Of a DNA stretch of 64,000 nt, positions 3 to 54,877 are shown one piece after another. The first letter of the stretch is position 1. Each line of letters begins with the position of its first letter. A program made the translations under genes and the position numbers. The DNA is from a virus: positions 1-64,000 of the IMG/VR virus record IMGVR_UViG_3300046534_001341. One strand, 5' to 3'. Below the pieces are notes generated by a model. The model had not been told where the DNA came from. It made no database searches and saw only the letters and a program-made list of their open reading frames with translations.

Positions 3-380
3 AAGCTTTATATATTCAAAGATGGTAAAGGCTCTGAACAACTTGTTGAGCGTGATGTGTTCATGGCTCTTCAAGACCACGAATGTGTTGCTGGTATCCT
101 GTTGGTTAGCGAAGAAAAAGCTACCAAGGAATCAAACTACAAAGATGGTACTGGTGAGTACCGCGAGTTCAATGAATTCGGTAAGTGGTTTGATTCAGAA
201 GGCTTCACTGCCACTGAACGTGCTGGTGAGCTAAAAGACCCTATCTTCATTCATGATTGGAAGAAGAAAAACATGGATCAAACACAGATCCGTAAGGCTA
301 AAAACCCTGGCGCCGCTGCTGGTGGAACTGCCGGTGCACCTGCTGCTGGTAACACAACTACCAAAAGCTTGTTTGCCTAA
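3..380 (+). CDS. N4-like single-stranded DNA-binding protein (gp45-like), 5'-truncated by the window edge
   Basis: Frame is open from the window start (KLYIFKDGKG...). Ala/Gly/Pro-rich tail ending KSLFA, directly upstream of the RuvC-like gene and near vRNAP, as in N4-like synteny. Confidence 0.75.
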   Translation, partial: KLYIFKDGKGSEQLVERDVFMALQDHECVAGILLVSEEKATKESNYKDGTGEYREFNEFGKWFDSEGFTATERAGELKDPIFIHDWKKKNMDQTQIRKAKNPGAAAGGTAGAPAAGNTTTKSLFA

Positions 381-943
381 TGGCCTGCATCCGTGTGGTG
401 GGGTTAGATCCATCCATGGCTGCTTTCGGGATATCGCTTGGTATCCTGAATCTCGACACTGGGGAGTTTGATCTCCAGTGTATTGAGGTCGTAGATACTG
501 CATCTAGTAAAACAAAGCAGGTGCGGAAAAACTCGGACGACCTAGAGAGAGCCAGGAAAATTCAAAAACAACTTATAGAAATGCTCCCCGGAGCTGATCT
601 TGTTTGTGTCGAGATACCCGTAGGAAGTCAGTCAGCTAGGGCGATGGCCAGTTATGGAATGTGTATAGGGATCTTAGCATCCATAAATATACCCATGATC
701 CAATTAACGGCTACAGAACTCAAGTTGGCTGCCACCGGCAATAAAAATGCCACAAAAAAAGACATGATTGATTGGGCAACTTCAACCTATCCGGATACCA
801 TGTGGTACTCGAAGAAAGTTAAAGGACAACGATCATTCACAAATAAAAACGAGCACGTAGCGGATGCGACCGCTGCCATTCATGCCGGAGTTAAAACCGA
901 TGAATTTAAGCTCATGCGACTGGCGTTCAACGCCAAGGAATAA
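380..943 (+). CDS. RuvC-like Holliday junction resolvase (N4 gp46-like)
   Basis: VVGLDPS (catalytic D), VCVEIP (E), ATKKDMI and EHVADA motifs of the RuvC RNase H fold. Confidence 0.85.
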   Translation: MACIRVVGLDPSMAAFGISLGILNLDTGEFDLQCIEVVDTASSKTKQVRKNSDDLERARKIQKQLIEMLPGADLVCVEIPVGSQSARAMASYGMCIGILASINIPMIQLTATELKLAATGNKNATKKDMIDWATSTYPDTMWYSKKVKGQRSFTNKNEHVADATAAIHAGVKTDEFKLMRLAFNAKE

Positions 944-1382: not shown

Positions 1383-1589
1383 GTGAAAAAATTCCTACTG
1401 GGATTTCTTATAGCACTACTCGGCACAGGTGTAGTAATAGCCCTGCCGTTTATTGCCGCAATCGGAACAGCCATCTTTATCTTCGTATTAATCCTGTTTG
1501 CTTCAGTTTCATACTTGAAGCATGCGGAAGATGAGAAGAAAATAAAGGCGGAGGGGGACTCTAAAAAGTCCCCCGACTCCCCCGATTAA
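1383..1589 (+). CDS. Small membrane protein (two predicted TM segments)
   Basis: Hydrophobic N-terminal ~45 aa, charged tail; converges on the vRNAP stop. Confidence 0.65.
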   Translation: MKKFLLGFLIALLGTGVVIALPFIAAIGTAIFIFVLILFASVSYLKHAEDEKKIKAEGDSKKSPDSPD

Positions 1590-4500
1590 AGCAAGCCTTC
1601 CACTGCATTTATTGTACCTATCTGGGATAGACCCATCTGAGGCGCGTGGATAGTATCCGCGATGTTGATGCTGGAGTCCCAGATATCTGGTAGGTCACCT
1701 ACAAAACCCTGTAAGGCGAATAGCATGAACACCCTTGCAGGGTTCTCGTGCATGGTTTCGGCCATCACCTTAAGAATTCTGATTCTATATTTCGAGAACC
1801 AAACCACACCCATATCATTCCCGTACTGGGTATACTTATGAGTTGGTAGGTCGTAGTTAATGAATATATTAACTATCTTCTCGATAGAATCCTTTTTAGA
1901 TAGTGGATCAACAGCCCTAGTGGTGTAGTGCTTATGTAAAGCGTAACGCGATACAAAATCACTCAACTGCGCTGCTTGATTAAGTGTCTTGTATACCTCT
2001 GAATCCTGAAGGATCAGGGCATTACTAATTATTTTTTTAACTGTGCTTGGTGTCTTACTACCGAAGTCAGTAAACTTATCGATGGCTTGAGCAGCTTTTG
2101 ATTTGTACGAATACTCATCCTTGCTTGCCGCTATATCCTCTACCACTGTTTGGTAGACACCTGCCTCAACTAATTCCCTTACTGGGTTATTAGCTAAATC
2201 ATTTTTAAGCTCTACCACTCGTGCCTTCTCTTTGTTGAGGTTGATACCAGGGTTGCCAGCTTCCTTTGCTTTAACCAATCTCTGTAGTTCCAGCAACTCA
2301 GCATAATCTTTTTGATACGCCCTAGCTCCACTGAACGCCTCTGCCTGATGCTTAAGAATATTCTTCATCGGTACACCTAATACTTTCAACATCACTCCGT
2401 TACTCACAGTGTTAGCTGCCGTAACAATGAATGATTTGATTACGATGATGTCCTTCAAAGACTTCACTACTTCTTGCCAAATATTCTCTGCAAATTTAAG
2501 TTTGCCTGCTGCTTGCTTACCTAAGAATAACTCAGCCGCCCCTAACAACATTTTTTGGTGGAACTCTCGCTCCTCTTTAGGCATCTGGAAAGCATCAGCT
2601 ACACTCAACTTACGTTGGCCGAATACCATATCAACTAGATCATTACGAACAAGCATCGTGTCACCACCCCAGACCTGTTTAACTTTCTGTCGGGCTTCAT
2701 TAGGTAATGCAAAGTAAATCTCACGTAGGCGCTTATCAGGACTCCTAGGGCCAATCTCTACGTATGAACGGAAACGAGTTGAGTACTCTTTATCGTATTG
2801 TTCTTTCAAGGCATCGATAGATTTATTGTTGATGGATTCACTTGAAACCTTATCAACAATATTACCGGCCATGGCCCCCATCACATCCTCAAAGCGGTTA
2901 TTTTTTTGAAGTAAGGAGTCTTTAGTTTGTTCCTCCATCATGTAACGATAACTAACCACTTCACGTAACTGGTTCAAAACAGGGACCATGAAATTTGATT
3001 TGATCTTGGTTGGGTCCACATCCCTGTCCATAAACATTTCATTAATGGCTTGCTGCTTATTAGCTTTGATAGTCGCCACATCCAACCGACCATTCAAGCT
3101 TGGTGAGTCATCGCCTGCCTGAGTACGTAAATTAATTGTGTCGGTACCTTTAGCTACCTTACTGGTTCGAGAGGTCACACCAGCATCATAAGTAGACAGG
3201 CCACCGTGACGTGATACGTATCGATAAACCGGAACCGTATTCAGGTCATTAGCATCACGAACTACCGGGCCACCCTCACGCTTGTACATACGCTTAGCTA
3301 AATCATCTCCCTCATTCTCAGTGGCATAAGTCACATCGATATGGGGATTCACGATCTCTTTGGTGTAGCCTTTTACCATGGCGTTAGAGCCGACAAATAA
3401 GCGCTTCTTAGACTCAGCTTTAAGGGACTTGTGCTGCCATAGAGTGAACGTAATACCATTTTCAGTAGCAGTACCCCCATCATCGTTACGAGCTGTTTCA
3501 GACAGAATTAATTCGCTTAGAGCGTTCCTGTGATCAATGGCTGTATATTTAACGGCAACCAGAGAAGCTAGGCGGTCCACTAATATCTCAGCAGTATCGA
3601 TCACATCTTGGTTAGGTTTATCTTTACCAGTACCAGAAAGGTCAGCTATCTGCTTGGCATTCAGTAACAAATGCTGTTCAGACTTACGGCCTGTAGCCAT
3701 GTAATAACCCAGTGCTACAGCAGATCTCTTGTAGAACCCACGGTGATTACCGAACTTATTCAACTGATTCTTCAGGCTAGTTATCTCAGTAGTCAGGTCG
3801 TTATTACCTTCCTTCAACATCTGGGCTAACTCAGGTAGTGAGTAAGCATCAGTAAGAGAAACCAAATCTGTCTTAATCATCGCCTTGGATATTGCAATTT
3901 TTTGGTCATCAGTAAGCTCACCCTTGAATTGTTTCAGGAGTGTTTCAGATACAGACTCTGCAATCATTTTACGCTGACGGTCAATTACCATATTACCTAC
4001 ACGCCCTAGGTCATGGAATGTTCCGTTATCATCTTGGCGCCCTAAGGCCTCAGTGATGGTAGCGTTCATGAAACCCTGCTGCCCCTGTCGAACAGTGTCA
4101 CGCATATTTTGGTAAGCGTTCGCAACATACTTAGCACGATCAGACGCAACCAGAGCAGTTATGGCACCAGTGGCACGAACTACAGCGAACTGTGAACTTT
4201 TGATTGGAGGCAACTCAGCAGCCTTAATTATCTGGGACTTGGTGAAAGCTATAATCTCATTCATGCCTTCAATAGTTTTAGTACCCGCAGCTTCCATGCT
4301 ACGAACTAAGTCGGATTTATGACGCTGTTCGATGTTGGATAGTTGAGTGAATAAAGCATCAAGCTGAGCATCAGCAGTGGCCTCCGTAACCTTGTGCATA
4401 CGGTCAGTGATAAATGTCACAACCATATCAAATATATTACCCATAATATCAAGCAACGAACCCTTGAATATACCATCTGGCTTGAGCCTAGATTGTAGGG

Positions 4501-7500
4501 AGCCTAGCTTTGTCTTGAATTTAGCGTTGGTCATACCGAATGCCATGAACTCGTGTAGGTAATCGGCGGTTTCTAACGTCCTATTTAACCCTGTGGTCTC
4601 ATCTATACTCCGCACTGGGGCATTGGATACCAAATTGAATATATGATCGTGACGAGCTTTAGCGGCGGCATATTCATCAGAATAGCTCGGATCCGAAGGA
4701 AGTAGGTTCTCGTTGGCCATAAAGTCTTTGATTGTGAAATTCTCTTTTGCCAAAGCATGTAGTCTTTTTAGCTGACGTTGGGCAACTGATCGTCCATTGA
4801 TACCTGCACGGGATACGTTATGGACCAACTCATGTAGGTAAACTTCCTGTGCTGACATACGAATACCATTAACCAGCATCCCGCTTGTAGCAGGAGTTGT
4901 GCCATTGGCTTGGTGAACTATGTACATATCCAGACCGGTAGTGGCACCCATGGTCTCGCTGTCAGGACTATCCTTACGATGTAGGTTGAAAGGTACCAAT
5001 ACTTTATTGATTGAACCCTTCAACAATTTACGTAGGTAATTACCGTGCTCAAGTGACTCAGGCACAAACTGCTCTTGGCTGCCTAAATTATCAAACACAT
5101 CCTCTGAGTTCATAGCGTTGACTGCTTCAATAGTCTTGGCTTGGAAAGTATCAGGGTTGATGCCACCGTTAGTGGAGCCTAACGAATCAATGAAGTTATC
5201 CAATATGTCATTTAACTTAGTGGTGGTCTGCTCAGACTTACGAAGCTCTGTACCATCAGCAAGGTACTGGCCCTGTATGGTGTGGTCTTCTAAATTGGCC
5301 AACTTACCTAAGTCAACTTCACGCACAGTGTTTGCCATCTTCACTTGGAACACTTGAAGTTCATTACGGCCCTTAGGTACAGTAGTATCTTCATGTAAAT
5401 TTTCTCTGGCTGCTGTAAGGGCCACCTCTAAGTACCTAGAGTTACCATTCTCATCATCTAACTCAGTGGCTAGTGCCATGGTACGAGTCAACGCATCTTG
5501 AGCAGCACCCATAACTGAGTATTCACTATGAACCTTGTTATAGCCTTTATTCATGGTTTGGCCTTGAGCTTTAGTTTCAGCCTGACCAACAATGATTGCA
5601 TCGTGTACGTTCAGTGCATTGTTGTTTTCTAAGTAGGTGAACATAGTTGCAGCATCGACACCTTGGATACCCATAACTGTTGGGGCAACACCTGGAGCAA
5701 TCATCTCCATCTCAGTGGCATTAGCTTTACTGCTTTTGTTCTGGCTACCATTAGGGGGGGTCTTATAAACCTGCTCCGTTAACAGAGCCTTCTTACCAGA
5801 AAATCTTGCAGCCTTAAACTTAGCAACATTGATTCCTGTATCAACCTTACCTTCCTGCTGTGAGAAGAATGAGTGCATAACTGGTGAACCCTCCATCAAA
5901 CGCTCACGGATAATGGTCATCTCAGTTTCAGGTAGTGTGGTCACATCACGGATAAGCTCGCCAGATAGGTACATTTCTTCTTGACGTTGGGTAACAAGAT
6001 CACGATACATTTTGTCGTAGGTCTGGAACACGATGTCCATGGCAGAGTTAATTAACTTACCTTTCTCTTTGAAGTCACTGAACTCAGTATCGATGGCTTC
6101 AATAAGCTCAGTACCGTAGGTGGTCTCAGCGAACTCACGGATGTGCATCTCAGCTTTGTAAGGCATCTTGTATTGTAGGGCTGCTGTTATATCCACAGAG
6201 CCGTTGTTGTTTTTAGGAAAAGAGAATCCACCGTTAGGTGCAAGAGTGTTTACAGTGTTTTCTAAGTCCCATAACAACTGACCCCCCTTCTCAGCATCAG
6301 TCTCAGCAATGGCACCCTCAATTTGGGAGTAAAAATTTGATATGAAACCGTCACTTACTAACTGCTTGATGCTGACATTACCCGCACCATAAACAGTTTG
6401 TACCAGAGGTGCTTTGGCAGAATTACGGTTGATGTCTCCATATAGCGAAGATGCTGCCTCAAGTACCCGAGGACTGGCATTAATAGATTTAAGCCTTTCA
6501 GCCCAAATACCAGCCAGAGCCACATAGCTATCAACCGAGCTGTCTTTGGTGATGTGCTCAAGGACAGAATCTTGGTTACCAAATAGCATACCTGTACGTT
6601 CCAATTTGTTGCGTACGTCAGCTTGGTCAGCACCCGCATTAAGCTGAAGGATACCAATGGCAGGGCCGTTGGTTAAACCGTCTATCTCACGGAAAATATC
6701 TGACTGGAATGTATCCTTGCCAGCATTCTGAGCCGCTACCATCGCAGCCAGACTAACGAGACCGTCGAGGGCGTAAGCACCTTCCTCAATCGAACCGTAA
6801 TCACCCGGTCGTACCTTACGAACAGCTATCATAATATCTTGCTGCATCTGCTCTTCATTGATGTCGTCAGTACCGATTTTATTTATGGCCACAACTGCGG
6901 CCTTTATTTCATCATCCTGAATCAACTCACGTATCTGCTGTAACGACACCTCAGGCATTTGCTTATCAGTGCTTATGTCGAATGCCTCAGCAATGGCCAT
7001 CATGAAGTCATTAACTTGACTTGGAACAGTAAGATTCACTTCACTGTTGAAGCTTTCCTGTTTAGCGAAGTGACGGTGTATCTTACTGGTCTGCATGTTG
7101 AAAGTATTACTCTGCTGCCCAGCACGACCTTGCTTCCAAATATTGTAAGAGTTGTAGAACGGGGTATCTTCACCTTGGTTCATTACGTCATCAATGTGGT
7201 CATTCAAATATTCTATTTCACGAGTGACCTCAGCATTGGCCGCCTCTTTACCAAGTAAGTTCTCTGCATGGACTTTACCCTCGATACCACCAATGTAGCC
7301 GTACAACTCCATTTGACTTTCTAATGGTAAGAACTGGTGTACAGCAACCGAACCGATCTTTAATGTCCAAGGACGAGCCTGATCTTTACCTATTATCTCA
7401 CGTAGGTTTTCAGGAACCTTCTGCCCAGTATTCTCCATGGTTTGAACTACGTTCTCTGGCGATACAAACGATGGCTTGACCTTGGCAGACTGAACTGAGA

Positions 7501-10500
7501 ACAATTTGTCCATGATACCGTCAGCAGCCTTCAGACCTTCTTTGATGTCAGTAACTATATCTATAGGTACATCTACCATTTCACCGAACGCATTCTCTTC
7601 TTGTTTGGTAGCAACCTTGTAGAAGGTCGTTACCGTGTTATCGGTGTTGGCTTGCTTGTCAGCATCGATGGCACCTACAGAAGCTTGTGCAGTTATCTCA
7701 GTTTCATTAGTCAATGCGGCTATCTGGTTAAAGGGGATTTCAGTAGTAGTTAGGTACCCAGAATCTTGGAGCATGTGGAGTGCCATTAGACCAACTGAGT
7801 GTTCAAGCTGGGATTTCATATTACCTGGGGCATCCTTACCAGCCTTAATACCTAGGGTCTTCATGACATCTTTACCAATTGAACTGGCCAACACACTACG
7901 ACTAACACCAACCTTGCCTAATAACTCACGAGCAGCAGAGGCCACATACTCTTTACTACCACGACCTATAATTGCGTTGATATCACGATCTTGATTATAA
8001 AGAGTATCCCCTGCACTTGTGGCCACCCAGTTATAAGCACCCATGGCAATTGAGGATATTACGTTTGGATCAAAAGTACCGTCCACACCGGCCAGGTACT
8101 GCATGTAATCCTGGTGTAAGAAACTTGCACGAGCTTTGAATAGCTTCTTGAATGACTTACCCATCTCAGCATTGAAGTTGAACATGGAGTTTAAGGTACT
8201 GACCTGCTCGATGCTTGTAGGCTCATCTAAGTGGATTTCCACTGAATCCTGAACATCCACTAAGCTAGAGAAGAAATCCTCCACAGAGGTTAGTATATTA
8301 CCACTAACGTCGGTATCTTTCTCACGACGAGTAGTGAAGTATTGTTGGACCATATTCAGGTTGTAAAAGCGACCTACACGATCTTTAGGTGACATCCCCT
8401 CAAGGTCTACAGAGTGCCCTGTAAGACGACTGGCCATGTTATAGGTGTTTGGTTCTTTGAAGAATCCCATGTCCGTCAGTGCATCCACAGCGGCTCGTGT
8501 GTCATTGGCTAAACCCTTACGGCTCAGACCTTGCTTAGCTTTGATTGCGTCAGGGCGATTGTCATTACGACGCGCCATGAATTCTTCTTGTTTAACTGGG
8601 GTATCCAAAAATTTGGCCATCTGCTTCTGGGTAATACCCTGTTGGCTCAATGATTGGATTACTCGAGTATCCTGCTCGGATTCATTAAAATTTTCCAAGG
8701 TCAGCCCTTTACCACTTTCAGCTATCGGATACGGCTGCGCCTCCTCCTCTGCTTTCGTGGCTTGGTCTTCCGTAGGCGTCGGGCTGACAAAAGAAAACTC
8801 GTTTTCTTTTTCAGAGCGAACATCAGCCGTAGGTATAACTGTGTCGGAAGTCGTGGAAGCCTCACCGCCTTGTTGAGGTTCCTTAAACAAGCCTACGGTA
8901 GGCTTCGCCTCCTCCGGTTTGTTTAACTCTCTCAACTTCGTCGTTTCAGCTACACTTTGTTCCTCCTGAAGAGGCGTAGCTGAGGAGGACTTGTCCGACG
9001 ATAAGCTGGCAGCCGATGAAGGGGCATCGGTAGCTAATGTCCGTTCGGTCGAATTACCTGAGGAAACCTCAGATACTTCATCCCTGACGGCGCTACCTTT
9101 AACTCTATTCCTGCCCTGAACCACAGCAGCACGTAAAGCATTAGCCTCTTGAACCACAGTATCTACTAACGGGTTATTTGGTAGGTTCGAGTTACGGTGA
9201 ATCTGAATAGGCTTTCCACGGGCAGTCGTGTACGTTGAACCAACAAGATCAATAGCAGCTTGGTGTTCGTCCGTAGGCTTGTAGTTAGCAGGCTTACCTT
9301 GGAAAGGTTTATACGCTGCAACAAAGTCACGAGCTTTTTGGCTGTGGCCGCGAGTAAATACCTCAAGTGTTTTTAGTGCCTTAGCAGCTCCGTCAGTGTT
9401 ACCTAACTCTAAGGCAGAACTGATTCGTTGCTGGTGGGTAGAGATGCCTGCATTGTCATTACCACCAGATATGATTTCACTGTTGGTGCCATCCAAAGTC
9501 TGTATAGCCTTCTGTACTTTGATGTGGTCTTTGATTTCAGTCTTTTCTTCTGGGCTGATTGTATTGTTGTCTAGTAATGTTTCGGCTTCTTCAATAGAAA
9601 CAGTTTCTGGGCTCATACGCATTGAACCAAGAACTCTAGCAGCCGACTCAGGTGTGTTTTCCTTGGCCAATTTTTCTATAGAGGAATTTTCAAAAAATTT
9701 TCTGGAGGCTCCCTGCTGAATTGCCCCCAGTCGTTCGATGCCCTGATCCATCTCTTCCTGAAGTGTTTCCACCTCTTTGGCCAGAGATCTTTGTAACTTA
9801 GGATCCCTAGAAGTAGCCATCTTCTTAGTAAGTGCATCAACCTTTTCGTCTGCCTTAGTAATTAACTCGACAGCTTCAGCAGCATTCTTAGTACGTTCTT
9901 CTTGAGTTGTGCCCTCAGCATCGTTGCGCTCATGTATGGCAGCAAGGGAGGTCGTAAGCTCGTAATCTGAGGCTTCTGTATCAGTAACAGTACTAACGTC
10001 ACCACTCTCAACTACCGCATCCACAGTCGCTTTAGCGGCAGCCTTAGAAGCCATGTCATTCTTCTGAGTTTGAATGGTATCTTTAGCACCCTGAATTGTA
10101 TTGGCAACACCACCTACGGCAACACCGGAAGCAGTACCTACAACTAGCCCAGCACCTGCTGCCGTACCTACACCTTCAGATAACTCTTGGTCTTCATCGA
10201 CGTATAGTTTGGTTGCCACGTTACCTGCAGCAGCTCCTGACCCACCCTGAATCGTTTCCTCGGCACCTTCTGATGCAGCGTTACGACCAGTCTTAGTAAT
10301 GATTGAACCAACAGCACTACCTGGAGTAAACAAACTACCTTCAAACTTGGCAGCCCCGGTAAGCTTAGATGCGACGGCACCCACAGAACCTGATATAGCC
10401 GCGGTAACATCGAACACCCGGTTAGAAACTTTCATACGGGCATCTTCAAAGCTATCACCCTGAGCCATCAAATCTAGGAAGTAAGGGGAACCTTCTTCTA

Positions 10501-11374
10501 GCGTGGCCTGATCCAAGTTAAGAACTTCTGCCTTGGCATCCAATCCATTACTCATACCTTCAGTCACAGCAACTGTGGCCAGACCAGCAGTAGTAGCGAT
10601 CTTAGCTACAGCTTTTTTGCCGACTTCGGATGCAAGGAACTTCTTCTGTGCCACTGGAGTTGCTTTACTTAATAGGGATGTAGTTAGTGCTTTACCCGCG
10701 GCACCACCAAGGAACATCTGAGGCAACGACTCCACCAGACTATCCACAGTAGCAAGAGGGTTAGAGGCTTGGGCCACAACCGAGTCAACAAGGGCTTCAC
10801 CTTGCTCACCAAAAAATTGTTTAACTACGTTCTCACCTTCAACACGCATACCTTCGATACGATCTTTAGTGGTGGTAGCAGCCTCAGCTACTTCTTCCAT
10901 CTGGAACTGAGTCTTATCGGACTGCATGCTTGACAGGAAGTCACGAGTAACACTGAAGTTTTTGGAGTGACCGCCTGTCACCTCATCTAATGATGGGATC
11001 TCTGAGCCAGTGAACTCACCTTTAGCAAGCGAACGTCCTGCAGCATCCACAAGGGTGGCTGGGTTGTATCGGGAAACTAAATCAGCAGCACCATAAGCAA
11101 TACCACCAAGAGCCACAGCACCTTTGGCCACAGACAATGCAGTATCACCTACAGCTTCACCGGCAGAGCGGTTCTGGTTACGTCGATTGAATTTATTACG
11201 AAGAAGGTCGTTCTCTTTATTGTGGGTACCAAGCAAGGCTTGCTTAGCAGTAGAGGCGTTGATCACGCCATCCCTTTTAGCTTCTTCCTGTGCCACCTGA
11301 CTATCAAAAGCTGCTGCTTCTTCAGTGGTATTGAAGTCGAATGTAAAGTCCGAAGGGGTGCCGTAATCAGCCAT
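1586..11374 (-). CDS. Virion-encapsidated RNA polymerase (N4 gp50-like vRNAP)
   Basis: 3262 aa. T7-like motifs KQGR, EIDGLTNG (A), RNSAKAPLVQTVYG (B), VHDAII (C). HELVH zincin-like motif. No Cys seen on reading, as in N4 vRNAP. Confidence 0.97.
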   Translation of the reverse strand: MADYGTPSDFTFDFNTTEEAAAFDSQVAQEEAKRDGVINASTAKQALLGTHNKENDLLRNKFNRRNQNRSAGEAVGDTALSVAKGAVALGGIAYGAADLVSRYNPATLVDAAGRSLAKGEFTGSEIPSLDEVTGGHSKNFSVTRDFLSSMQSDKTQFQMEEVAEAATTTKDRIEGMRVEGENVVKQFFGEQGEALVDSVVAQASNPLATVDSLVESLPQMFLGGAAGKALTTSLLSKATPVAQKKFLASEVGKKAVAKIATTAGLATVAVTEGMSNGLDAKAEVLNLDQATLEEGSPYFLDLMAQGDSFEDARMKVSNRVFDVTAAISGSVGAVASKLTGAAKFEGSLFTPGSAVGSIITKTGRNAASEGAEETIQGGSGAAAGNVATKLYVDEDQELSEGVGTAAGAGLVVGTASGVAVGGVANTIQGAKDTIQTQKNDMASKAAAKATVDAVVESGDVSTVTDTEASDYELTTSLAAIHERNDAEGTTQEERTKNAAEAVELITKADEKVDALTKKMATSRDPKLQRSLAKEVETLQEEMDQGIERLGAIQQGASRKFFENSSIEKLAKENTPESAARVLGSMRMSPETVSIEEAETLLDNNTISPEEKTEIKDHIKVQKAIQTLDGTNSEIISGGNDNAGISTHQQRISSALELGNTDGAAKALKTLEVFTRGHSQKARDFVAAYKPFQGKPANYKPTDEHQAAIDLVGSTYTTARGKPIQIHRNSNLPNNPLVDTVVQEANALRAAVVQGRNRVKGSAVRDEVSEVSSGNSTERTLATDAPSSAASLSSDKSSSATPLQEEQSVAETTKLRELNKPEEAKPTVGLFKEPQQGGEASTTSDTVIPTADVRSEKENEFSFVSPTPTEDQATKAEEEAQPYPIAESGKGLTLENFNESEQDTRVIQSLSQQGITQKQMAKFLDTPVKQEEFMARRNDNRPDAIKAKQGLSRKGLANDTRAAVDALTDMGFFKEPNTYNMASRLTGHSVDLEGMSPKDRVGRFYNLNMVQQYFTTRREKDTDVSGNILTSVEDFFSSLVDVQDSVEIHLDEPTSIEQVSTLNSMFNFNAEMGKSFKKLFKARASFLHQDYMQYLAGVDGTFDPNVISSIAMGAYNWVATSAGDTLYNQDRDINAIIGRGSKEYVASAARELLGKVGVSRSVLASSIGKDVMKTLGIKAGKDAPGNMKSQLEHSVGLMALHMLQDSGYLTTTEIPFNQIAALTNETEITAQASVGAIDADKQANTDNTVTTFYKVATKQEENAFGEMVDVPIDIVTDIKEGLKAADGIMDKLFSVQSAKVKPSFVSPENVVQTMENTGQKVPENLREIIGKDQARPWTLKIGSVAVHQFLPLESQMELYGYIGGIEGKVHAENLLGKEAANAEVTREIEYLNDHIDDVMNQGEDTPFYNSYNIWKQGRAGQQSNTFNMQTSKIHRHFAKQESFNSEVNLTVPSQVNDFMMAIAEAFDISTDKQMPEVSLQQIRELIQDDEIKAAVVAINKIGTDDINEEQMQQDIMIAVRKVRPGDYGSIEEGAYALDGLVSLAAMVAAQNAGKDTFQSDIFREIDGLTNGPAIGILQLNAGADQADVRNKLERTGMLFGNQDSVLEHITKDSSVDSYVALAGIWAERLKSINASPRVLEAASSLYGDINRNSAKAPLVQTVYGAGNVSIKQLVSDGFISNFYSQIEGAIAETDAEKGGQLLWDLENTVNTLAPNGGFSFPKNNNGSVDITAALQYKMPYKAEMHIREFAETTYGTELIEAIDTEFSDFKEKGKLINSAMDIVFQTYDKMYRDLVTQRQEEMYLSGELIRDVTTLPETEMTIIRERLMEGSPVMHSFFSQQEGKVDTGINVAKFKAARFSGKKALLTEQVYKTPPNGSQNKSSKANATEMEMIAPGVAPTVMGIQGVDAATMFTYLENNNALNVHDAIIVGQAETKAQGQTMNKGYNKVHSEYSVMGAAQDALTRTMALATELDDENGNSRYLEVALTAARENLHEDTTVPKGRNELQVFQVKMANTVREVDLGKLANLEDHTIQGQYLADGTELRKSEQTTTKLNDILDNFIDSLGSTNGGINPDTFQAKTIEAVNAMNSEDVFDNLGSQEQFVPESLEHGNYLRKLLKGSINKVLVPFNLHRKDSPDSETMGATTGLDMYIVHQANGTTPATSGMLVNGIRMSAQEVYLHELVHNVSRAGINGRSVAQRQLKRLHALAKENFTIKDFMANENLLPSDPSYSDEYAAAKARHDHIFNLVSNAPVRSIDETTGLNRTLETADYLHEFMAFGMTNAKFKTKLGSLQSRLKPDGIFKGSLLDIMGNIFDMVVTFITDRMHKVTEATADAQLDALFTQLSNIEQRHKSDLVRSMEAAGTKTIEGMNEIIAFTKSQIIKAAELPPIKSSQFAVVRATGAITALVASDRAKYVANAYQNMRDTVRQGQQGFMNATITEALGRQDDNGTFHDLGRVGNMVIDRQRKMIAESVSETLLKQFKGELTDDQKIAISKAMIKTDLVSLTDAYSLPELAQMLKEGNNDLTTEITSLKNQLNKFGNHRGFYKRSAVALGYYMATGRKSEQHLLLNAKQIADLSGTGKDKPNQDVIDTAEILVDRLASLVAVKYTAIDHRNALSELILSETARNDDGGTATENGITFTLWQHKSLKAESKKRLFVGSNAMVKGYTKEIVNPHIDVTYATENEGDDLAKRMYKREGGPVVRDANDLNTVPVYRYVSRHGGLSTYDAGVTSRTSKVAKGTDTINLRTQAGDDSPSLNGRLDVATIKANKQQAINEMFMDRDVDPTKIKSNFMVPVLNQLREVVSYRYMMEEQTKDSLLQKNNRFEDVMGAMAGNIVDKVSSESINNKSIDALKEQYDKEYSTRFRSYVEIGPRSPDKRLREIYFALPNEARQKVKQVWGGDTMLVRNDLVDMVFGQRKLSVADAFQMPKEEREFHQKMLLGAAELFLGKQAAGKLKFAENIWQEVVKSLKDIIVIKSFIVTAANTVSNGVMLKVLGVPMKNILKHQAEAFSGARAYQKDYAELLELQRLVKAKEAGNPGINLNKEKARVVELKNDLANNPVRELVEAGVYQTVVEDIAASKDEYSYKSKAAQAIDKFTDFGSKTPSTVKKIISNALILQDSEVYKTLNQAAQLSDFVSRYALHKHYTTRAVDPLSKKDSIEKIVNIFINYDLPTHKYTQYGNDMGVVWFSKYRIRILKVMAETMHENPARVFMLFALQGFVGDLPDIWDSSINIADTIHAPQMGLSQIGTINAVEGLL

Positions 11375-37666: not shown

Positions 37667-37849
37667 TTAATTTTCCCTTTGTACCAGTGGAACAGGTTCG
37701 TTGGTAAATTTATGAAGATTCTCTTGCTCAAGTTTATCAACCAAAGCAAGAAAACACACAAAAAGTACAAGAAAACACAGAGCAATACCGGAAGAAGTTG
37801 CTTTAGGCTCATCTTGATCTTCATACGGGTCCTTCTTATTTTTGTTCAT
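37667..37849 (-). CDS. Small single-TM protein
   Basis: GAGGT RBS, one hydrophobic helix. Confidence 0.55.
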   Translation of the reverse strand: MNKNKKDPYEDQDEPKATSSGIALCFLVLFVCFLALVDKLEQENLHKFTNEPVPLVQREN

Positions 37850-37919
37850 GCGATTACTACCTCATTTCTAGGGTGTGCTTAGTTATAAAGTACCGTTAAG
37901 TATATAGCAATAAGTTTGG

Positions 37920-37948
37920 TTGACGAAGTTATGGGGTTACTGGATACT
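37920..37948 (+). promoter_or_regulatory. Sigma70-type promoter
   Basis: TTGACG-N17-GATACT. Confidence 0.6.
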
Positions 37949-37954
37949 ATGCCT

Positions 37955-38063
37955 GTTAGCTCTTGGCGGGACCGACATACCAGACCACTTAAATGTTAGC
38001 TTCCTCGTATTGCCCGCCAAGGTATTACGAATATGGGGGAGTTAACATTTAAGTGGTTTTTTT
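37955..38063 (+). ncRNA. Candidate structured leader RNA / attenuator
   Basis: 28-bp stem 37984-38011/38030-38057 with four G:U pairs and no mismatches, then a T-run; 5' CTTGGCGGG (37962-37970) is complementary to loop CCCGCCAAG (38013-38021). Confidence 0.6.
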
Positions 38064-38089
38064 ATATCTTAAACAAAGAGGAACGACCC

Positions 38090-38596
38090 ATGACCCCATA
38101 CATTGGAACCAAACTACTAAACGCCGAACCTATGGCCTTAGGTGAGTACAATACCCTACAAGGTTGGTCACTCCCTGAAGGACAAGACCCCGACACTGAG
38201 GGGTACTTAGTTGAGTACGTGGGAGGTGGTAAACCGAACCATAAAGACTTCAATGGTTTCATCTCGTGGAGCCCTAAGGATGTATTTGAGGCCTCTTATC
38301 AAAAATCCGGCTCTATGTCTTTTGGTCACGCAATCGAAATGATGAAGCTAGGTTGTAAGGTGTCTCGGAAGGGTTGGAACGGTAAAGGTATGTGGGTTAT
38401 CTACAACCCTGGCAGCCAAGGCCAGACCCATGCAATGTTTGACGGCTCTGTTTACAAAAGGCATGGCCTAGATAATTGTGAAATCTTACCTCACTTCGAC
38501 ATGTACACAGTTAACGCTGAAGGCCGTCGTGCGATGTTACCTGGTTGGTTAGCTTCCCAATCAGACATGGATGCCAGTGACTGGGGGATAGTTTAG
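38090..38596 (+). CDS. DUF2829 / Tad2-like anti-defence sponge domain fused to an N-terminal conserved phage domain
   Basis: C-half MSFGHAIEMMKLGCKVSRKGWNGKGMW...GWLASQSDMDASDW; N-half YIGTK...EGYLVEY...SWSPKDVFEASY; AGAGGA RBS. Confidence 0.8.
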   Translation: MTPYIGTKLLNAEPMALGEYNTLQGWSLPEGQDPDTEGYLVEYVGGGKPNHKDFNGFISWSPKDVFEASYQKSGSMSFGHAIEMMKLGCKVSRKGWNGKGMWVIYNPGSQGQTHAMFDGSVYKRHGLDNCEILPHFDMYTVNAEGRRAMLPGWLASQSDMDASDWGIV

Positions 38597-38775
38597 TGTC
38601 TTACGACGCACTACCTATACCTGATCGGTACCAACCAGAGCCTAAGGCCCCAACACCTACTCTTCAAACAATTGGGGGGCAGACGCCCCTATACTGGGCA
38701 ATCAAGTCGGCCAACCTAGATATGGAGGCAGAAGTGTTAGATTTCGATGAATCATTGCTGCAGTTTGAAGAATGA
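38596..38775 (+). CDS. Hypothetical 59-aa protein (not in ORF track)
   Basis: GTG start overlapping the previous stop; its stop overlaps the next ATG. Confidence 0.5.
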   Translation: MSYDALPIPDRYQPEPKAPTPTLQTIGGQTPLYWAIKSANLDMEAEVLDFDESLLQFEE

Positions 38776-39020
38776 CACACGAAGGGTTAAAGCGGGCTCA
38801 GTGGCTCGTCAAACAAATCAAGAACACTGAACAGAACCTCAACCAAGATCAGCACGTAGAAGTTAATGGTTACGGTGGGTGGTCTATGTGCAACATACCT
38901 GAGGTACATGACGCACTGGATGAGTTAAAGAGAATGGGGGATCAAATTATGAAAGCACAAGGCCGTGCCACCCTATCATCAATGAAAGCAGAACTTCTAT
39001 CCTTAGGAGTGGAGGACTAG
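38772..39020 (+). CDS. Hypothetical protein
   Basis: 82-aa ORF, ATGA-coupled, ends before a terminator. Confidence 0.65.
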   Translation: MTHEGLKRAQWLVKQIKNTEQNLNQDQHVEVNGYGGWSMCNIPEVHDALDELKRMGDQIMKAQGRATLSSMKAELLSLGVED

Positions 39021-39024
39021 ACAT

Positions 39025-39048
39025 AAAAAAGCCCCTGTGAAGGGGCTT
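39025..39048 (-). terminator. Intrinsic terminator between convergent genes
   Basis: AAAAAA-GCCCCT-GTGA-AGGGGC-TT; T-run on the minus strand. Confidence 0.75.
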
Positions 39049-39086: not shown

Positions 39087-39356
39087 TTACACAGTACACC
39101 TCATCAACAATGCTTTCAACCTCAAATCTTTGCCATCCACGAACTTAACCTTCTGCGGGTTATCCCCCAAAAATTTGTATATTAGATCACTCACGAAAGT
39201 ACACCCCACCTTTTCATGACCCAACTCAGCACGAATAAGGTAGTGGGGTAACTCAACTTGTTCCTGACTACGCATCATCTGCTTCATAAGCTCAACCGTG
39301 TAATACCTGTCAGGCTTACTCCCCTCATAAACGAATCTTACATAATCATCACTCAT
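39087..39356 (-). CDS. Hypothetical protein with C-terminal KDLRLKALL motif
   Basis: Start MSDDYV at an ATGA overlap. Confidence 0.65.
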   Translation of the reverse strand: MSDDYVRFVYEGSKPDRYYTVELMKQMMRSQEQVELPHYLIRAELGHEKVGCTFVSDLIYKFLGDNPQKVKFVDGKDLRLKALLMRCTV

Positions 39357-39685
39357 GCCACCACCGCCTTCATAACCGCGGTACCGTAATCCGCTGCCCA
39401 ATCAATATTCGTAATAGGCTCAGGCTTCGGCCCAACAAGCAAAGCTCTCAACTTAATAACCTTATCTTCCTCATACCTAACCGCAGTCACAACGTCACTA
39501 TCAACAAGGTTATTGGCCCAAGTCCTACCACGTTGACTCTCAGGCAAAACAACAATCATAGGTACCGACTCACCATGTGCCGCCCAAATAGCATTAGCAA
39601 CACCTGAACCATTAAGCTTAACAACGACATATCTCTCCACACCATCTGGGTGTAAGAACATAATAGTGCCACGAGGTTGAATCAT
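39353..39685 (-). CDS. Hypothetical protein with KVIKLRALL motif; start uncertain
   Basis: ORF 39353-39763, internal ATG chosen; coupled to the downstream gene. Confidence 0.55.
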   Translation of the reverse strand: MIQPRGTIMFLHPDGVERYVVVKLNGSGVANAIWAAHGESVPMIVVLPESQRGRTWANNLVDSDVVTAVRYEEDKVIKLRALLVGPKPEPITNIDWAADYGTAVMKAVVA

Positions 39686-39897
39686 AATAATCATCCGCCA
39701 AGGAGAAGGGACGACCATCATACACCTACAACTAAGATTCGCCATAGACAGTATTCGCTCCACATAATTTTTTAGAAAAACTATTTTGAGATTTGTGATA
39801 ATTGGGTATGAGTTCAGTACTGATGGAACGGGAACCGTAAATCGGAAGTACCCCCCCTACTTCAATCCTAATACCTATCGCCTACCCACCCTCGTCA

Positions 39898-39913
39898 TCC
39901 ACCTAACGGTGGA
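39898..39913 (+). promoter_or_regulatory. Candidate vRNAP hairpin promoter 1
   Basis: TCCACC-TAAC-GGTGGA upstream of the gp1-like gene. Confidence 0.7.
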
Positions 39914-39999
39914 GTAAGGATGATACGTAGCACTAGCTCATCCAGCGTAGCTGGCACGTGGAGACCAGCAACTTAATTCAATCATTGGAGCATCACATC

Positions 40000-40212
40000 A
40001 TGTGGGCAGCAATAGCACAAGTATGGGCATTCATCGGATCACTAGCATCAGCAGCTAACAACGCAGCTACAGCTATCGAGAAATGCACCTTGGTCGCAGA
40101 CCAAGCAGCAGACAACTTCCTAGCCGAAGAGTCAGCTAAACAAGCAGAACGCAAGATCATCCTTGCATCACGCTTAGCAGCCATTCAAGCAGAGCACGAA
40201 GCAGTAGCCTAG
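40000..40212 (+). CDS. N4-like first early gene product (gp1-like)
   Basis: Ala-rich amphipathic helical protein, GGAG RBS, first gene after hairpin 1. Confidence 0.65.
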   Translation: MWAAIAQVWAFIGSLASAANNAATAIEKCTLVADQAADNFLAEESAKQAERKIILASRLAAIQAEHEAVA

Positions 40213-40217
40213 TAGCA

Positions 40218-40233
40218 GCCTCCTCAGGGAGGC
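40218..40233 (+). terminator. Hairpin after the gp1-like gene (possible terminator)
   Basis: GCCTCC-TCAG-GGAGGC; weak U tract. Confidence 0.4.
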
Positions 40234-40382
40234 CTTACTACTTATACACACCAACACACTACACACCCTCAAAGATAGCTCCTATGAAAGGAGAGAGGCT
40301 CAGGATTGGTTATATCACGGTATATCTACCGAATAGGCCTTCCTGACAAGTCAGGCTAAACCGATACATACCCGATATGCTC

Positions 40383-40764: not shown

Positions 40765-40778
40765 ACCACTAACGTGGT
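40765..40778 (+). promoter_or_regulatory. Candidate vRNAP hairpin promoter 3
   Basis: ACCAC-TAAC-GTGGT inside a longer TACCTCA...TGAGGTA inverted repeat. Confidence 0.7.
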
Positions 40779-44857: not shown

Positions 44858-44932
44858 ACCACCAGCCCAGCTAACACAGTGGGCATCATTGTCACCTCCG
44901 GTGACCTACCTGACCAATATTTGGAGAAAAAC

Positions 44933-54632: not shown

Positions 54633-54877
54633 GTAAACCTGAAGAATGCGTAATGTGCTCAGAGGGTTGTGACCCAGCCGCCACAGGCAGAAGACCCCAC
54701 AAAAAGTTCAGTACTGAATTCTGCGTTTGGTGTGATCTAGGTATACAGTTGGAAAAGGAACATAACCTCAAGAAATTACTTCTCAATGATAAGAAACCCC
54801 GAACAATTGCCGATCTTATACGCAAACAAATGAATGCAAAAGGGGCGGCCTCCGGCCGCTTTGTTCCCAAAAATTAA
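54611..54877 (+). CDS. Array D zinc-finger protein 7 (KEHNLKKLL)
   Basis: CVMC...CVWC..G. Confidence 0.7.
   Translation: MCKTRDISKPEECVMCSEGCDPAATGRRPHKKFSTEFCVWCDLGIQLEKEHNLKKLLLNDKKPRTIADLIRKQMNAKGAASGRFVPKN
54845..54859 (+). promoter_or_regulatory. Perfect GC hairpin with TCC loop upstream of the AAA ATPase
   Basis: GCGGCC-TCC-GGCCGC. Confidence 0.5.

Follow-up and report, generated by a model that had tools for sequence, protein, structure and literature searches.

Little has been learned about the timing and dosage of phage counter-defence genes, above all where control at the RNA level is concerned. The locus described here raises this question, as a 28-bp hairpin stem followed by a run of T stands between a candidate promoter and the RBS of a Tad2-like phage gene. 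We ask whether this structure ends the transcript, directs its processing, constitutes a small RNA in its own right, or has no role as RNA at all.

Genomic setting of the Tad2-like gene

The window, i.e. the whole stretch of DNA that was analysed, comprises positions 1 to 64,000 of an IMG/VR virus record of 76.8 kb, and by its layout the genome is that of an N4-like (Schitoviridae) phage. Over 1,210 to 2,400 residues, a 3262-aa ORF on the minus strand (1586-11374) can be aligned to giant ORFs of G001 and G002, as we call the two closest N4-like genomes; from this alignment and its N4-like position we read it as the virion RNA polymerase. The minus-strand late block, which reaches up to the start of the first late-strand ORF at 37849, encodes TerL (phrog_38) as well as an N4 gp69-like protein (phrog_2109), and the plus-strand block begins at 38090. 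Among named phages, the closest are Vibrio and Alteromonas schitoviruses, with a TerL identity of about 63-66%. The public runs listed as containing this cold-marine phage, all in the form of contigs, are four DNA metagenomes, two from ice and two from seawater, the latter with the phage in fragments, and no RNA run was among them. A tRNA/tmRNA scan returned no hits.

Opposite the start of the late operon, and divergent from it, three rightward genes form a mini-operon (38090-39020), and the first of them is, by sequence comparison, a homologue of Tad2/DUF2829 and of N4 gp49. The protein matches Pfam PF11195 with an E-value of 7.2e-21 over residues 76-168, shares 42.6% identity with N4 gp49 (E 5e-30), and recovers the PDB entries of SptTad2 (8wjd, E 1.1e-14), Tad2 (8v3e) and AcrIIA7 (9kzr), the E-values ranging from 1e-14 to 1e-7. 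The public gene call, which starts within the hairpin at ATG 38033 and gives 187 aa, is probably overlong: homologues begin at the same MTPYIGTK position as the product of the ATG at 38090, and the RBS and start codon of this shorter form are found 15-26 nt past the U-run. The closest Tad2 proteins, encoded on small ENA contigs, are 80% and 76% identical, and their N-terminal extensions were considered as possible counterparts of the leader and rejected, being a fused zinc-ribbon ORF. No family match was obtained for the 59-aa and 82-aa ORFs that complete the mini-operon. The features of the locus are collected in Table 1.

Table 1. Positions of the features in and around the divergent gap, in coordinates of the window.
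Feature	Position	Strand	Remark
Candidate divergent sigma70-type promoter, TCGTCA-16 nt-TATACT	37899-37926	-	9/12 match; for the late operon
Candidate sigma70-type promoter, TTGACG-17 nt-GATACT	37920-37948	+	9/12 match
5′ segment of the predicted RNA, GUUAGCU followed by CUUGGCGGG	37955-37971	+	CUUGGCGGG complementary to the loop
S1 helix, with CCCGCCAAG(G) as the loop strand	37962-37971 with 38013-38022	+	Interleaved with the stem; H-type pseudoknot topology
Stem, left arm	37984-38011	+	28-bp stem
Loop, 18 nt	38012-38029	+	
Stem, right arm	38030-38057	+	28-bp stem
T-run, seven T	38057-38063	+	
Shine-Dalgarno, GAGGA	38079-38083	+	6 nt before ATG 38090
N4 gp49 / DUF2829 / Tad2-like gene, 168 aa	38090-38596	+	PF11195, N4 gp49 and PDB matches
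Two small ORFs, 59 and 82 aa	38596-39020	+	Same mini-operon; from the ORF list
GC-rich hairpin GCCCCTGTGAAGGGGC	39025-39045	.	At the convergence with two minus-strand ORFs; T-run on the minus strand only

The gene, a nucleotide-sponge homologue conserved across N4-like phages, here appears to have moved to a unit driven by the host polymerase at the last-entering end of the genome. In N4 itself, gp49 overlaps gp48, lacks a leader and closes the series of rightward genes that precedes the vRNAP gene, whereas here its homologue heads the mini-operon. The layout at the right end of N4 is the same, with gp69 on the minus strand followed by gp70-72 on the plus strand as a mini-operon that diverges from the late-operon start. 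As to the position within the genome, the contig 39446-40379 of run X2, one of the two ice metagenomes, shows twice the depth of its neighbours, which hints at a terminal repeat, and hence at the physical ends, in this interval; the hairpin would then be located some 1.4-2.3 kb inside the right, last-entering end.

The longest hairpin of the genome and its strand

The 28-bp stem with four G:U pairs, the T-run, the promoter-like hexamers and an RBS about 15 nt after the T-run, all of which a first-pass annotation of the DNA had listed, were recovered at the positions given in Table 1. The stem is formed by 28 contiguous pairs, 24 Watson-Crick and four G:U (37999:38042, 38002:38039, 38005:38036 and 38007:38034), and is AU-rich, with only eight G-C pairs. 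Its last base is also the first T of the T-run, so that the RNA directly 3′ of the stem reads U6-A-U-A-U, as expected of an intrinsic terminator, whose U-tract counts about six or more. By RNAfold the hairpin reaches -49.7 kcal/mol (z = -7.07; none of 200 shuffles folds equally well), and the stem alone -38.4 kcal/mol.

When both strands of the entire 76,845-bp genome were scanned, no hairpin longer than that at 37984-38057 was found, and the runners-up, of 17-20 bp, are mismatched and contain many G:U pairs. The expected count of such a 28-bp stem in a random genome of this size is ~1e-5 by our arithmetic, in which 0.375^28 is multiplied by the numbers of positions, loop sizes and strands. 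In one ice metagenome the hairpin is placed within a contig of 33.5 kb, and an identical copy is present on a contig of a second ice metagenome, from another study, which rules out an assembly artefact; no natural variants were detected between the contigs of the two runs (X1 and X2).

The first-pass annotation had further proposed that the G:U pairs indicate selection on the plus-strand RNA, and the folding energies point to the same strand. For the plus-strand RNA (37955-38064) the folding energy is -45.5 kcal/mol (z -6.15), compared to -29.6 kcal/mol (z -2.69) for the minus-strand RNA of the same region. Moreover, each of the four non-Watson-Crick pairs is a G:U in the plus-strand RNA and would be A:C on the minus strand, and the U-run borders the stem on the plus strand only. 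Together, these observations support an RNA-level structure of the plus strand, rather than a DNA cruciform.

Accordingly, we consider it very unlikely that the hairpin lacks an RNA-level regulatory role, being instead a relic terminator that moved together with the gp49-like gene, or a DNA-level element (a cruciform, or a signal for replication or packaging). The gene has clearly been relocated among related phages, long inverted repeats may extrude as cruciforms, and the region is close to the probable physical genome end suggested by the doubled depth. However, the four mismatches (G:T or A:C) would weaken a DNA cruciform yet are neutral in the plus-strand RNA, and the U-run and the complementarity between the 5′ segment and the loop are directional RNA features. 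In addition, the putative terminus does not coincide with the hairpin; a terminal fold-back hairpin was likewise rejected, as the likely terminal repeat is located elsewhere.

Nor does the element resemble the promoter hairpins of N4-like phages (4-7-bp stems, 3-4-nt loops, a start about 11-14 nt from the loop centre), even though these are also hairpins upstream of genes in an N4-like genome. For N4-type virion RNA polymerase promoters, 5-7-bp stems with 3-nt loops are described (PMC4496689), and the candidates of the present phage, six hairpins with an invariant C-TAAC-G loop of which the first is found at 39904, have 4-6-bp stems and a TAAC loop. A 28-bp stem with an 18-nt loop fits neither group, and identity with such a promoter was rejected on size, although the base of the stem (ACCAC...GTGGT) equals the stem of the candidate promoter hairpin at 40770. 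No C-TAAC-G or C-GRA-G mini-hairpin was detected in 37850-38090. Since the virion-polymerase promoter candidates begin at 39904, the mini-operon appears to be positioned outside the early region and not to be served by them, congruent with transcription by the host polymerase.

For such transcription, TTGACG (37920-37925) and GATACT (37943-37948), separated by a 17-nt spacer of optimal length, offer a plausible if weak plus-strand candidate: sigma70 sites of this score are hardly enriched, a 1.3-kb scan giving four where shuffles give 2.3 +/- 1.3. Its -35 element overlaps that of the candidate minus-strand promoter, the two standing back to back. Initiation is predicted near G37955 and would yield an RNA of 110 nt, of which the first 17 nt make up the segment that pairs with the loop, the partner strand of S1 beginning 7 nt from the 5′ end. 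What precedes the hairpin is the start of the minus-strand late operon, with no plus-strand gene upstream, and a terminator at this position would therefore act only on transcripts born in the 240-bp divergent gap.

Termination, processing or a separate small RNA

We tentatively favour a cis-acting structured leader with an intrinsic terminator, read-through of which would feed the operon. According to this model, the host RNA polymerase would start at the sigma70-type promoter, near G37955, and produce an RNA of roughly 110 nt in which the 28-bp stem and the U6 tail serve as an intrinsic terminator. The majority of the transcripts would end about 38063, leaving a stable small RNA, and the fraction that reads through would become the mRNA of the gp49/Tad2-like mini-operon. 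The arrangement shares with known leader terminators and attenuators a hairpin and U-tract placed after a promoter-like site and ahead of the first gene's RBS, as well as an upstream segment able to pair elsewhere in the leader. It departs from them in its 28-bp AU-rich stem and 18-nt loop, in that the upstream segment pairs with the loop rather than with an arm, and in having no leader peptide, known aptamer or Rfam family. Congruent with a terminator, a hairpin with a U-run also directly precedes the RBS of gp71 in N4, and a terminator abutting an RBS thus occurs in the equivalent region of that phage; the N4 stem is however a 7-bp GC-rich one, with no sequence similarity to the hairpin here. 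A looser likeness is offered by the PeSL (promoter-early stem-loop) cassettes that Arbiol et al. reportedly described in 2010 for T4-type phages, where a promoter and a stem-loop flank a mobile accessory ORF of variable position. In those cassettes the stem-loop precedes the promoter and many copies are present per genome, whereas here the promoter comes before the hairpin and the arrangement occurs once.

The first-pass annotation had offered an attenuator, a switch or a small RNA, and suggested a decoy RNA. Of these, the terminator-like anatomy before the Tad2-like RBS is upheld, while the switch finds no support. Nothing points to a decoy or to ligand sensing, and the Rfam search that had been proposed gave no match for the leader. 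Specifically, no family was found in a 2-kb region in E-value mode or in the whole window at the gathering threshold, miRNA noise with an E of about 1 being the only return. The predicted leader also contains no plausible leader ORF in the ORF list, and no conserved sensor domain (aptamer, leader peptide or T-box) was recognized.

Termination alone does not explain the length of the stem, which is AU-rich and three times longer than the ordinary terminators of this phage (6-12-bp GC-rich stems with small loops). Usual intrinsic terminators have GC-rich stems of 5-14 bp. With eight G-C pairs among 28 and an 18-nt loop, the hairpin departs from the short GC-rich stem and small loop of a typical terminator, and a consensus terminator scanner omitted it owing to its loop and stem limits.

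These properties lend weight to a strong rival, or to a second function beside termination, namely a processing or stability site. Here the stem in the 5′ UTR would be cut by host RNase III or bound by a dsRNA-binding protein, so that the leader is split from the gp49/Tad2-like message and its stability or translation is set, the U-run being secondary; we judge this account possible, though on the unlikely side. RNase III needs roughly 20 bp of dsRNA, which the 28 contiguous pairs, including the four G:U, exceed. The long stem is moreover unlike the compact terminators of the phage. In the R0.3 site of T7 (before the anti-restriction gene 0.3/ocr), the lambda N leader and sib, a long stem is likewise found just upstream of a counter-defence or early gene, as a hairpin on the mRNA strand near the RBS, and in lambda sib one hairpin region is both a terminator and an RNase III site. 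The T7 R-sites differ by an internal loop that leads to a single cut, whereas the stem here is uninterrupted and would be a putative substrate.

The two closest N4-like genomes, G001 (TerL 74%, Tad2 73% identity) and G002 (TerL 69%, Tad2 40%), bear on this alternative. In both, the Tad2-like gene is found in the middle block, at two positions other than that in the window. In G001 it is directly preceded by an AU-rich hairpin of 19-20 bp that ends ~20 nt before the ATG (z -6.67), and in G002 by a 27-bp AU-rich hairpin (z -3.54) with two G:U pairs and one mismatch, which encloses a 64-nt insert and comes to within 4 nt of the RBS. The two are among the very few long hairpins of their genomes, and their non-Watson-Crick pairs, read on the mRNA strand, are G:U. 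A further long hairpin of G001 abuts the RBS of a 128-aa gene. By our estimate, the association of gene and hairpin in all three phages would arise by chance with a probability of ~1e-5, even with the hairpins confined to intergenic DNA. The absence of a U-run from both nearest relatives favours a role in processing or stability, at least as a rival to termination. On the other hand, neither hairpin shows loop pairing, and the three share no alignable sequence, leaving their homology unproven. The perfect U6 tail, which only the window hairpin of the three possesses and for which we estimate a chance of roughly 2e-4, points to termination. Furthermore, N4 and other carriers of gp49/Tad2 have no such leader: none was found before the gene in N4 or Vibrio phage 41E34.2, nor in the divergent gap of PG11.

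That three related phages each combine this gene with a long hairpin is what we consider most worth following. A hairpin that gates or processes the message would represent a simple, testable case of RNA-level control of an anti-immune gene, and also a compact synthetic-biology part; one that is just a strong terminator would make the finding ordinary.

Wider searches for relatives of the leader were negative. No DNA homologue was recovered in IMG/VR, the JGI metagenomes or INPHARED, where the blastn matches were confined to the coding part of Tad2, in Vibrio podophages of 37 kb. A pattern scan for the S1 pair gave 24 matches in IMG/VR, all unrelated, and a pattern scan of the JGI metagenomes gave four, on unrelated GC-rich contigs; blastn and nhmmer against all fetched loci gave no match to the leader, and Rfam none at the loci of the relatives. 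A structured leader as a general trait of Tad2 genes was rejected, as the longest upstream helix averages 8.75 bp across 72 IMG/VR loci, the few long ones resembling terminators of the upstream gene. Among 51 related loci, no homologous hairpin was present at the equivalent position upstream of TerL. The hairpin is thus without known relatives, and its function is deduced from one sequence; our claims are limited by the leader being known from a single genome.

A third possibility, which we regard as quite unlikely, is a stand-alone gene for a trans-acting small RNA, with the RNA of roughly 110 nt as the product and the Tad2-like neighbour incidental. The anatomy from promoter to terminator and the compact fold would suit such a gene, and G001 offers a hairpin of the N4 promoter type and, after it, one of 20 bp, with no ORF. 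A precedent exists in the N4-like phage LUZ7, for which small non-coding RNAs from an intergenic region have been reported (PMC9163698). However, genome-wide duplex scans with the loop and the 5′ segment yielded nothing above background, the single-stranded parts would be mostly consumed by S1, and homologues of the element are lacking. An RBS 15 nt past the U-run fits a leader instead. Pairing in the manner of type I toxin-antitoxin systems, with the mRNA of the adjacent 60-aa membrane protein, was rejected on a duplex energy that is only average.

Predicted pairing of the 5′ segment with the loop

Returning to the leader with a terminator, the perfect 9-nt complementarity between the 5′ segment and the loop that the first-pass annotation had noted is real. 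The reverse complement of CTTGGCGGG (37963-37971) is present without mismatch in the loop as CCCGCCAAG (38013-38021), and a G:U pair (37962:38022) lengthens the helix, S1, to 10 bp with a duplex energy of -19.6 kcal/mol. A 9-nt perfect complement to the loop in the 64 nt upstream occurred in 0.18-0.21% of shuffles (p about 0.002). The duplicated GTTAGCT, from which the same annotation had derived an alternative fold, is present at 37955-37961 and again in the left arm at 37996-38002; the duplication by itself is however not significant (~0.06 by our estimate), and as GUUAGCU it can compete for only 7 nt of the right arm.

S1 uses the loop rather than an arm and has no nucleotides in common with the terminator stem, and thus is not a classical antiterminator. 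Within the leader, the only competitor for the right arm is GUUAGCU, and a switch would have to act through the steric relation between the two helices. By our geometric estimate, the 12-nt connector (37972-37983) must span 28 bp, or ~80 Å, and would be near full extension, so that S1 and a fully closed stem base are probably in tension. This tension is the only route we see by which S1 might modulate termination: the helix would probably tuck away the 5′ end of the RNA, strain the base of the stem, or both, and so tune read-through by the polymerase.

More speculatively, and with little probability in our judgement, S1 may control closure of the stem base next to the U-tract, forming a pseudoknot-gated terminator in which a signal acting on S1 sets the supply of the Tad2-like sponge, and the marine N4-like clade would use long double-stranded leaders for post-transcriptional control of gp49/Tad2-like genes wherever the gene sits. 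Sea-ice temperature, a protein or a small molecule, for instance an immune nucleotide, could provide this signal. An analogue of the pseudoknot in G002 was rejected (p 0.16).

Folding of the growing transcript indicates an order of events. The 10-bp helix of the 5′ end and the loop would form first during transcription, interleaved with the stem that follows. With S1 enforced, the best nested fold reaches -14.4 kcal/mol, against -45.5 kcal/mol otherwise, a comparison restricted to nested folds. While the 3′ end of the transcript is between 38022 and 38040, S1 is the minimum-energy fold, and the long stem overtakes it in stability only from ~38046.

Candidate early promoters

Six short hairpins on the plus strand of the window share the loop motif C-TAAC-G, and downstream of each of them (6/6) lies a small ORF. 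Most are followed by TAG, with a small 5' stem-loop coming next after several of the six. These hairpins are candidate early promoters for the virion RNA polymerase (vRNAP), with a 4-nt loop; the motif is absent from both of the closest N4-like relatives, G001 and G002. Three mini-hairpins carry instead, on the template strand, the C-GRA-G loop that is the classical promoter loop type in N4, and two of the three are followed downstream by TACCTGA-CAA-AT. A second promoter class may be represented by these elements.

Hairpins, ORFs and related elements in the phage, its relative G001 and coliphage N4
Feature	Location	Strand	Details
C-TAAC-G short hairpins (6)	window 39904, 40387, 40770, 41253, 42420, 48947	+	covarying 4-6-bp stems, invariant loop
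C-GRA-G mini-hairpins (3)	window 44893-44907, 54847-54861; genome 67629-67643	template minus	GTCACCGGAGGTGAC, GCGGCCGGAGGCCGC, ACCAACCGAAGGTTGGT
G001 N4-type promoter hairpin, then 20-bp hairpin	L165/L166 72495-72615	-	CATCC-TTC-GGATG on RNA-like strand
G001 hairpin series (3)	L166 63612-63949	-	24, 18 and 19 bp; occupy gap upstream of 128-aa gene
Two ORFs, unannotated family	window 39087-39763	-	104 and 136 aa; converge on Tad2 mini-operon
GC-rich hairpin	window 39025-39045		T-run on minus strand only
N4 GC-rich hairpin + U-run	L173 6530-6575 = EF056009 69529-69574		GGGAGCC...GGCTCCC TTTTTCTTTT
RuvC-like Holliday junction resolvase ORF	window 380-943	+	phrog_159, E 5e-46

Long hairpins in relatives and in N4

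At one G001 locus, the 20-bp hairpin stands about 37 nt after the promoter hairpin and has a 31-nt loop that includes GCGAAGC; no ORF of at least 50 aa is found downstream of it. This locus may encode an early non-coding RNA built on the same promoter-then-long-hairpin design. In the G001 hairpin series, 2 nt separate the end of the last hairpin from the RBS of the 128-aa gene. The 735 bp upstream of the gp49-like gene of G002 (L167 17929-18664) contain no ORF of at least 45 aa on the coding strand and gave no match in an Rfam search. In N4, the GC-rich hairpin with its U-run is located immediately upstream of the gp71 RBS, in the right-end mini-operon.

Start of the Tad2-like gene and a possible terminal repeat

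In the public annotation, the Tad2-like protein is 187 aa long and begins at the ATG at 38033, within the right arm of the 28-bp hairpin. Homologues and the RBS point instead to 38090 as the true start (168 aa). The GC-rich hairpin of the window sits where the two minus-strand ORFs converge with the Tad2 mini-operon. The resolvase ORF belongs to the rightward gene block immediately preceding the putative vRNAP gene, the site of gp49 in N4.

In X2, a run of a second ice metagenome containing contigs of the same phage, a 934-bp piece (window 39446-40379) forms a contig of its own at a depth of 9.35, versus 4.5 and 3.8 for its neighbours, approximately two-fold. This piece may be a direct terminal repeat, and would therefore mark the physical genome ends. 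The first C-TAAC-G hairpin falls inside it.
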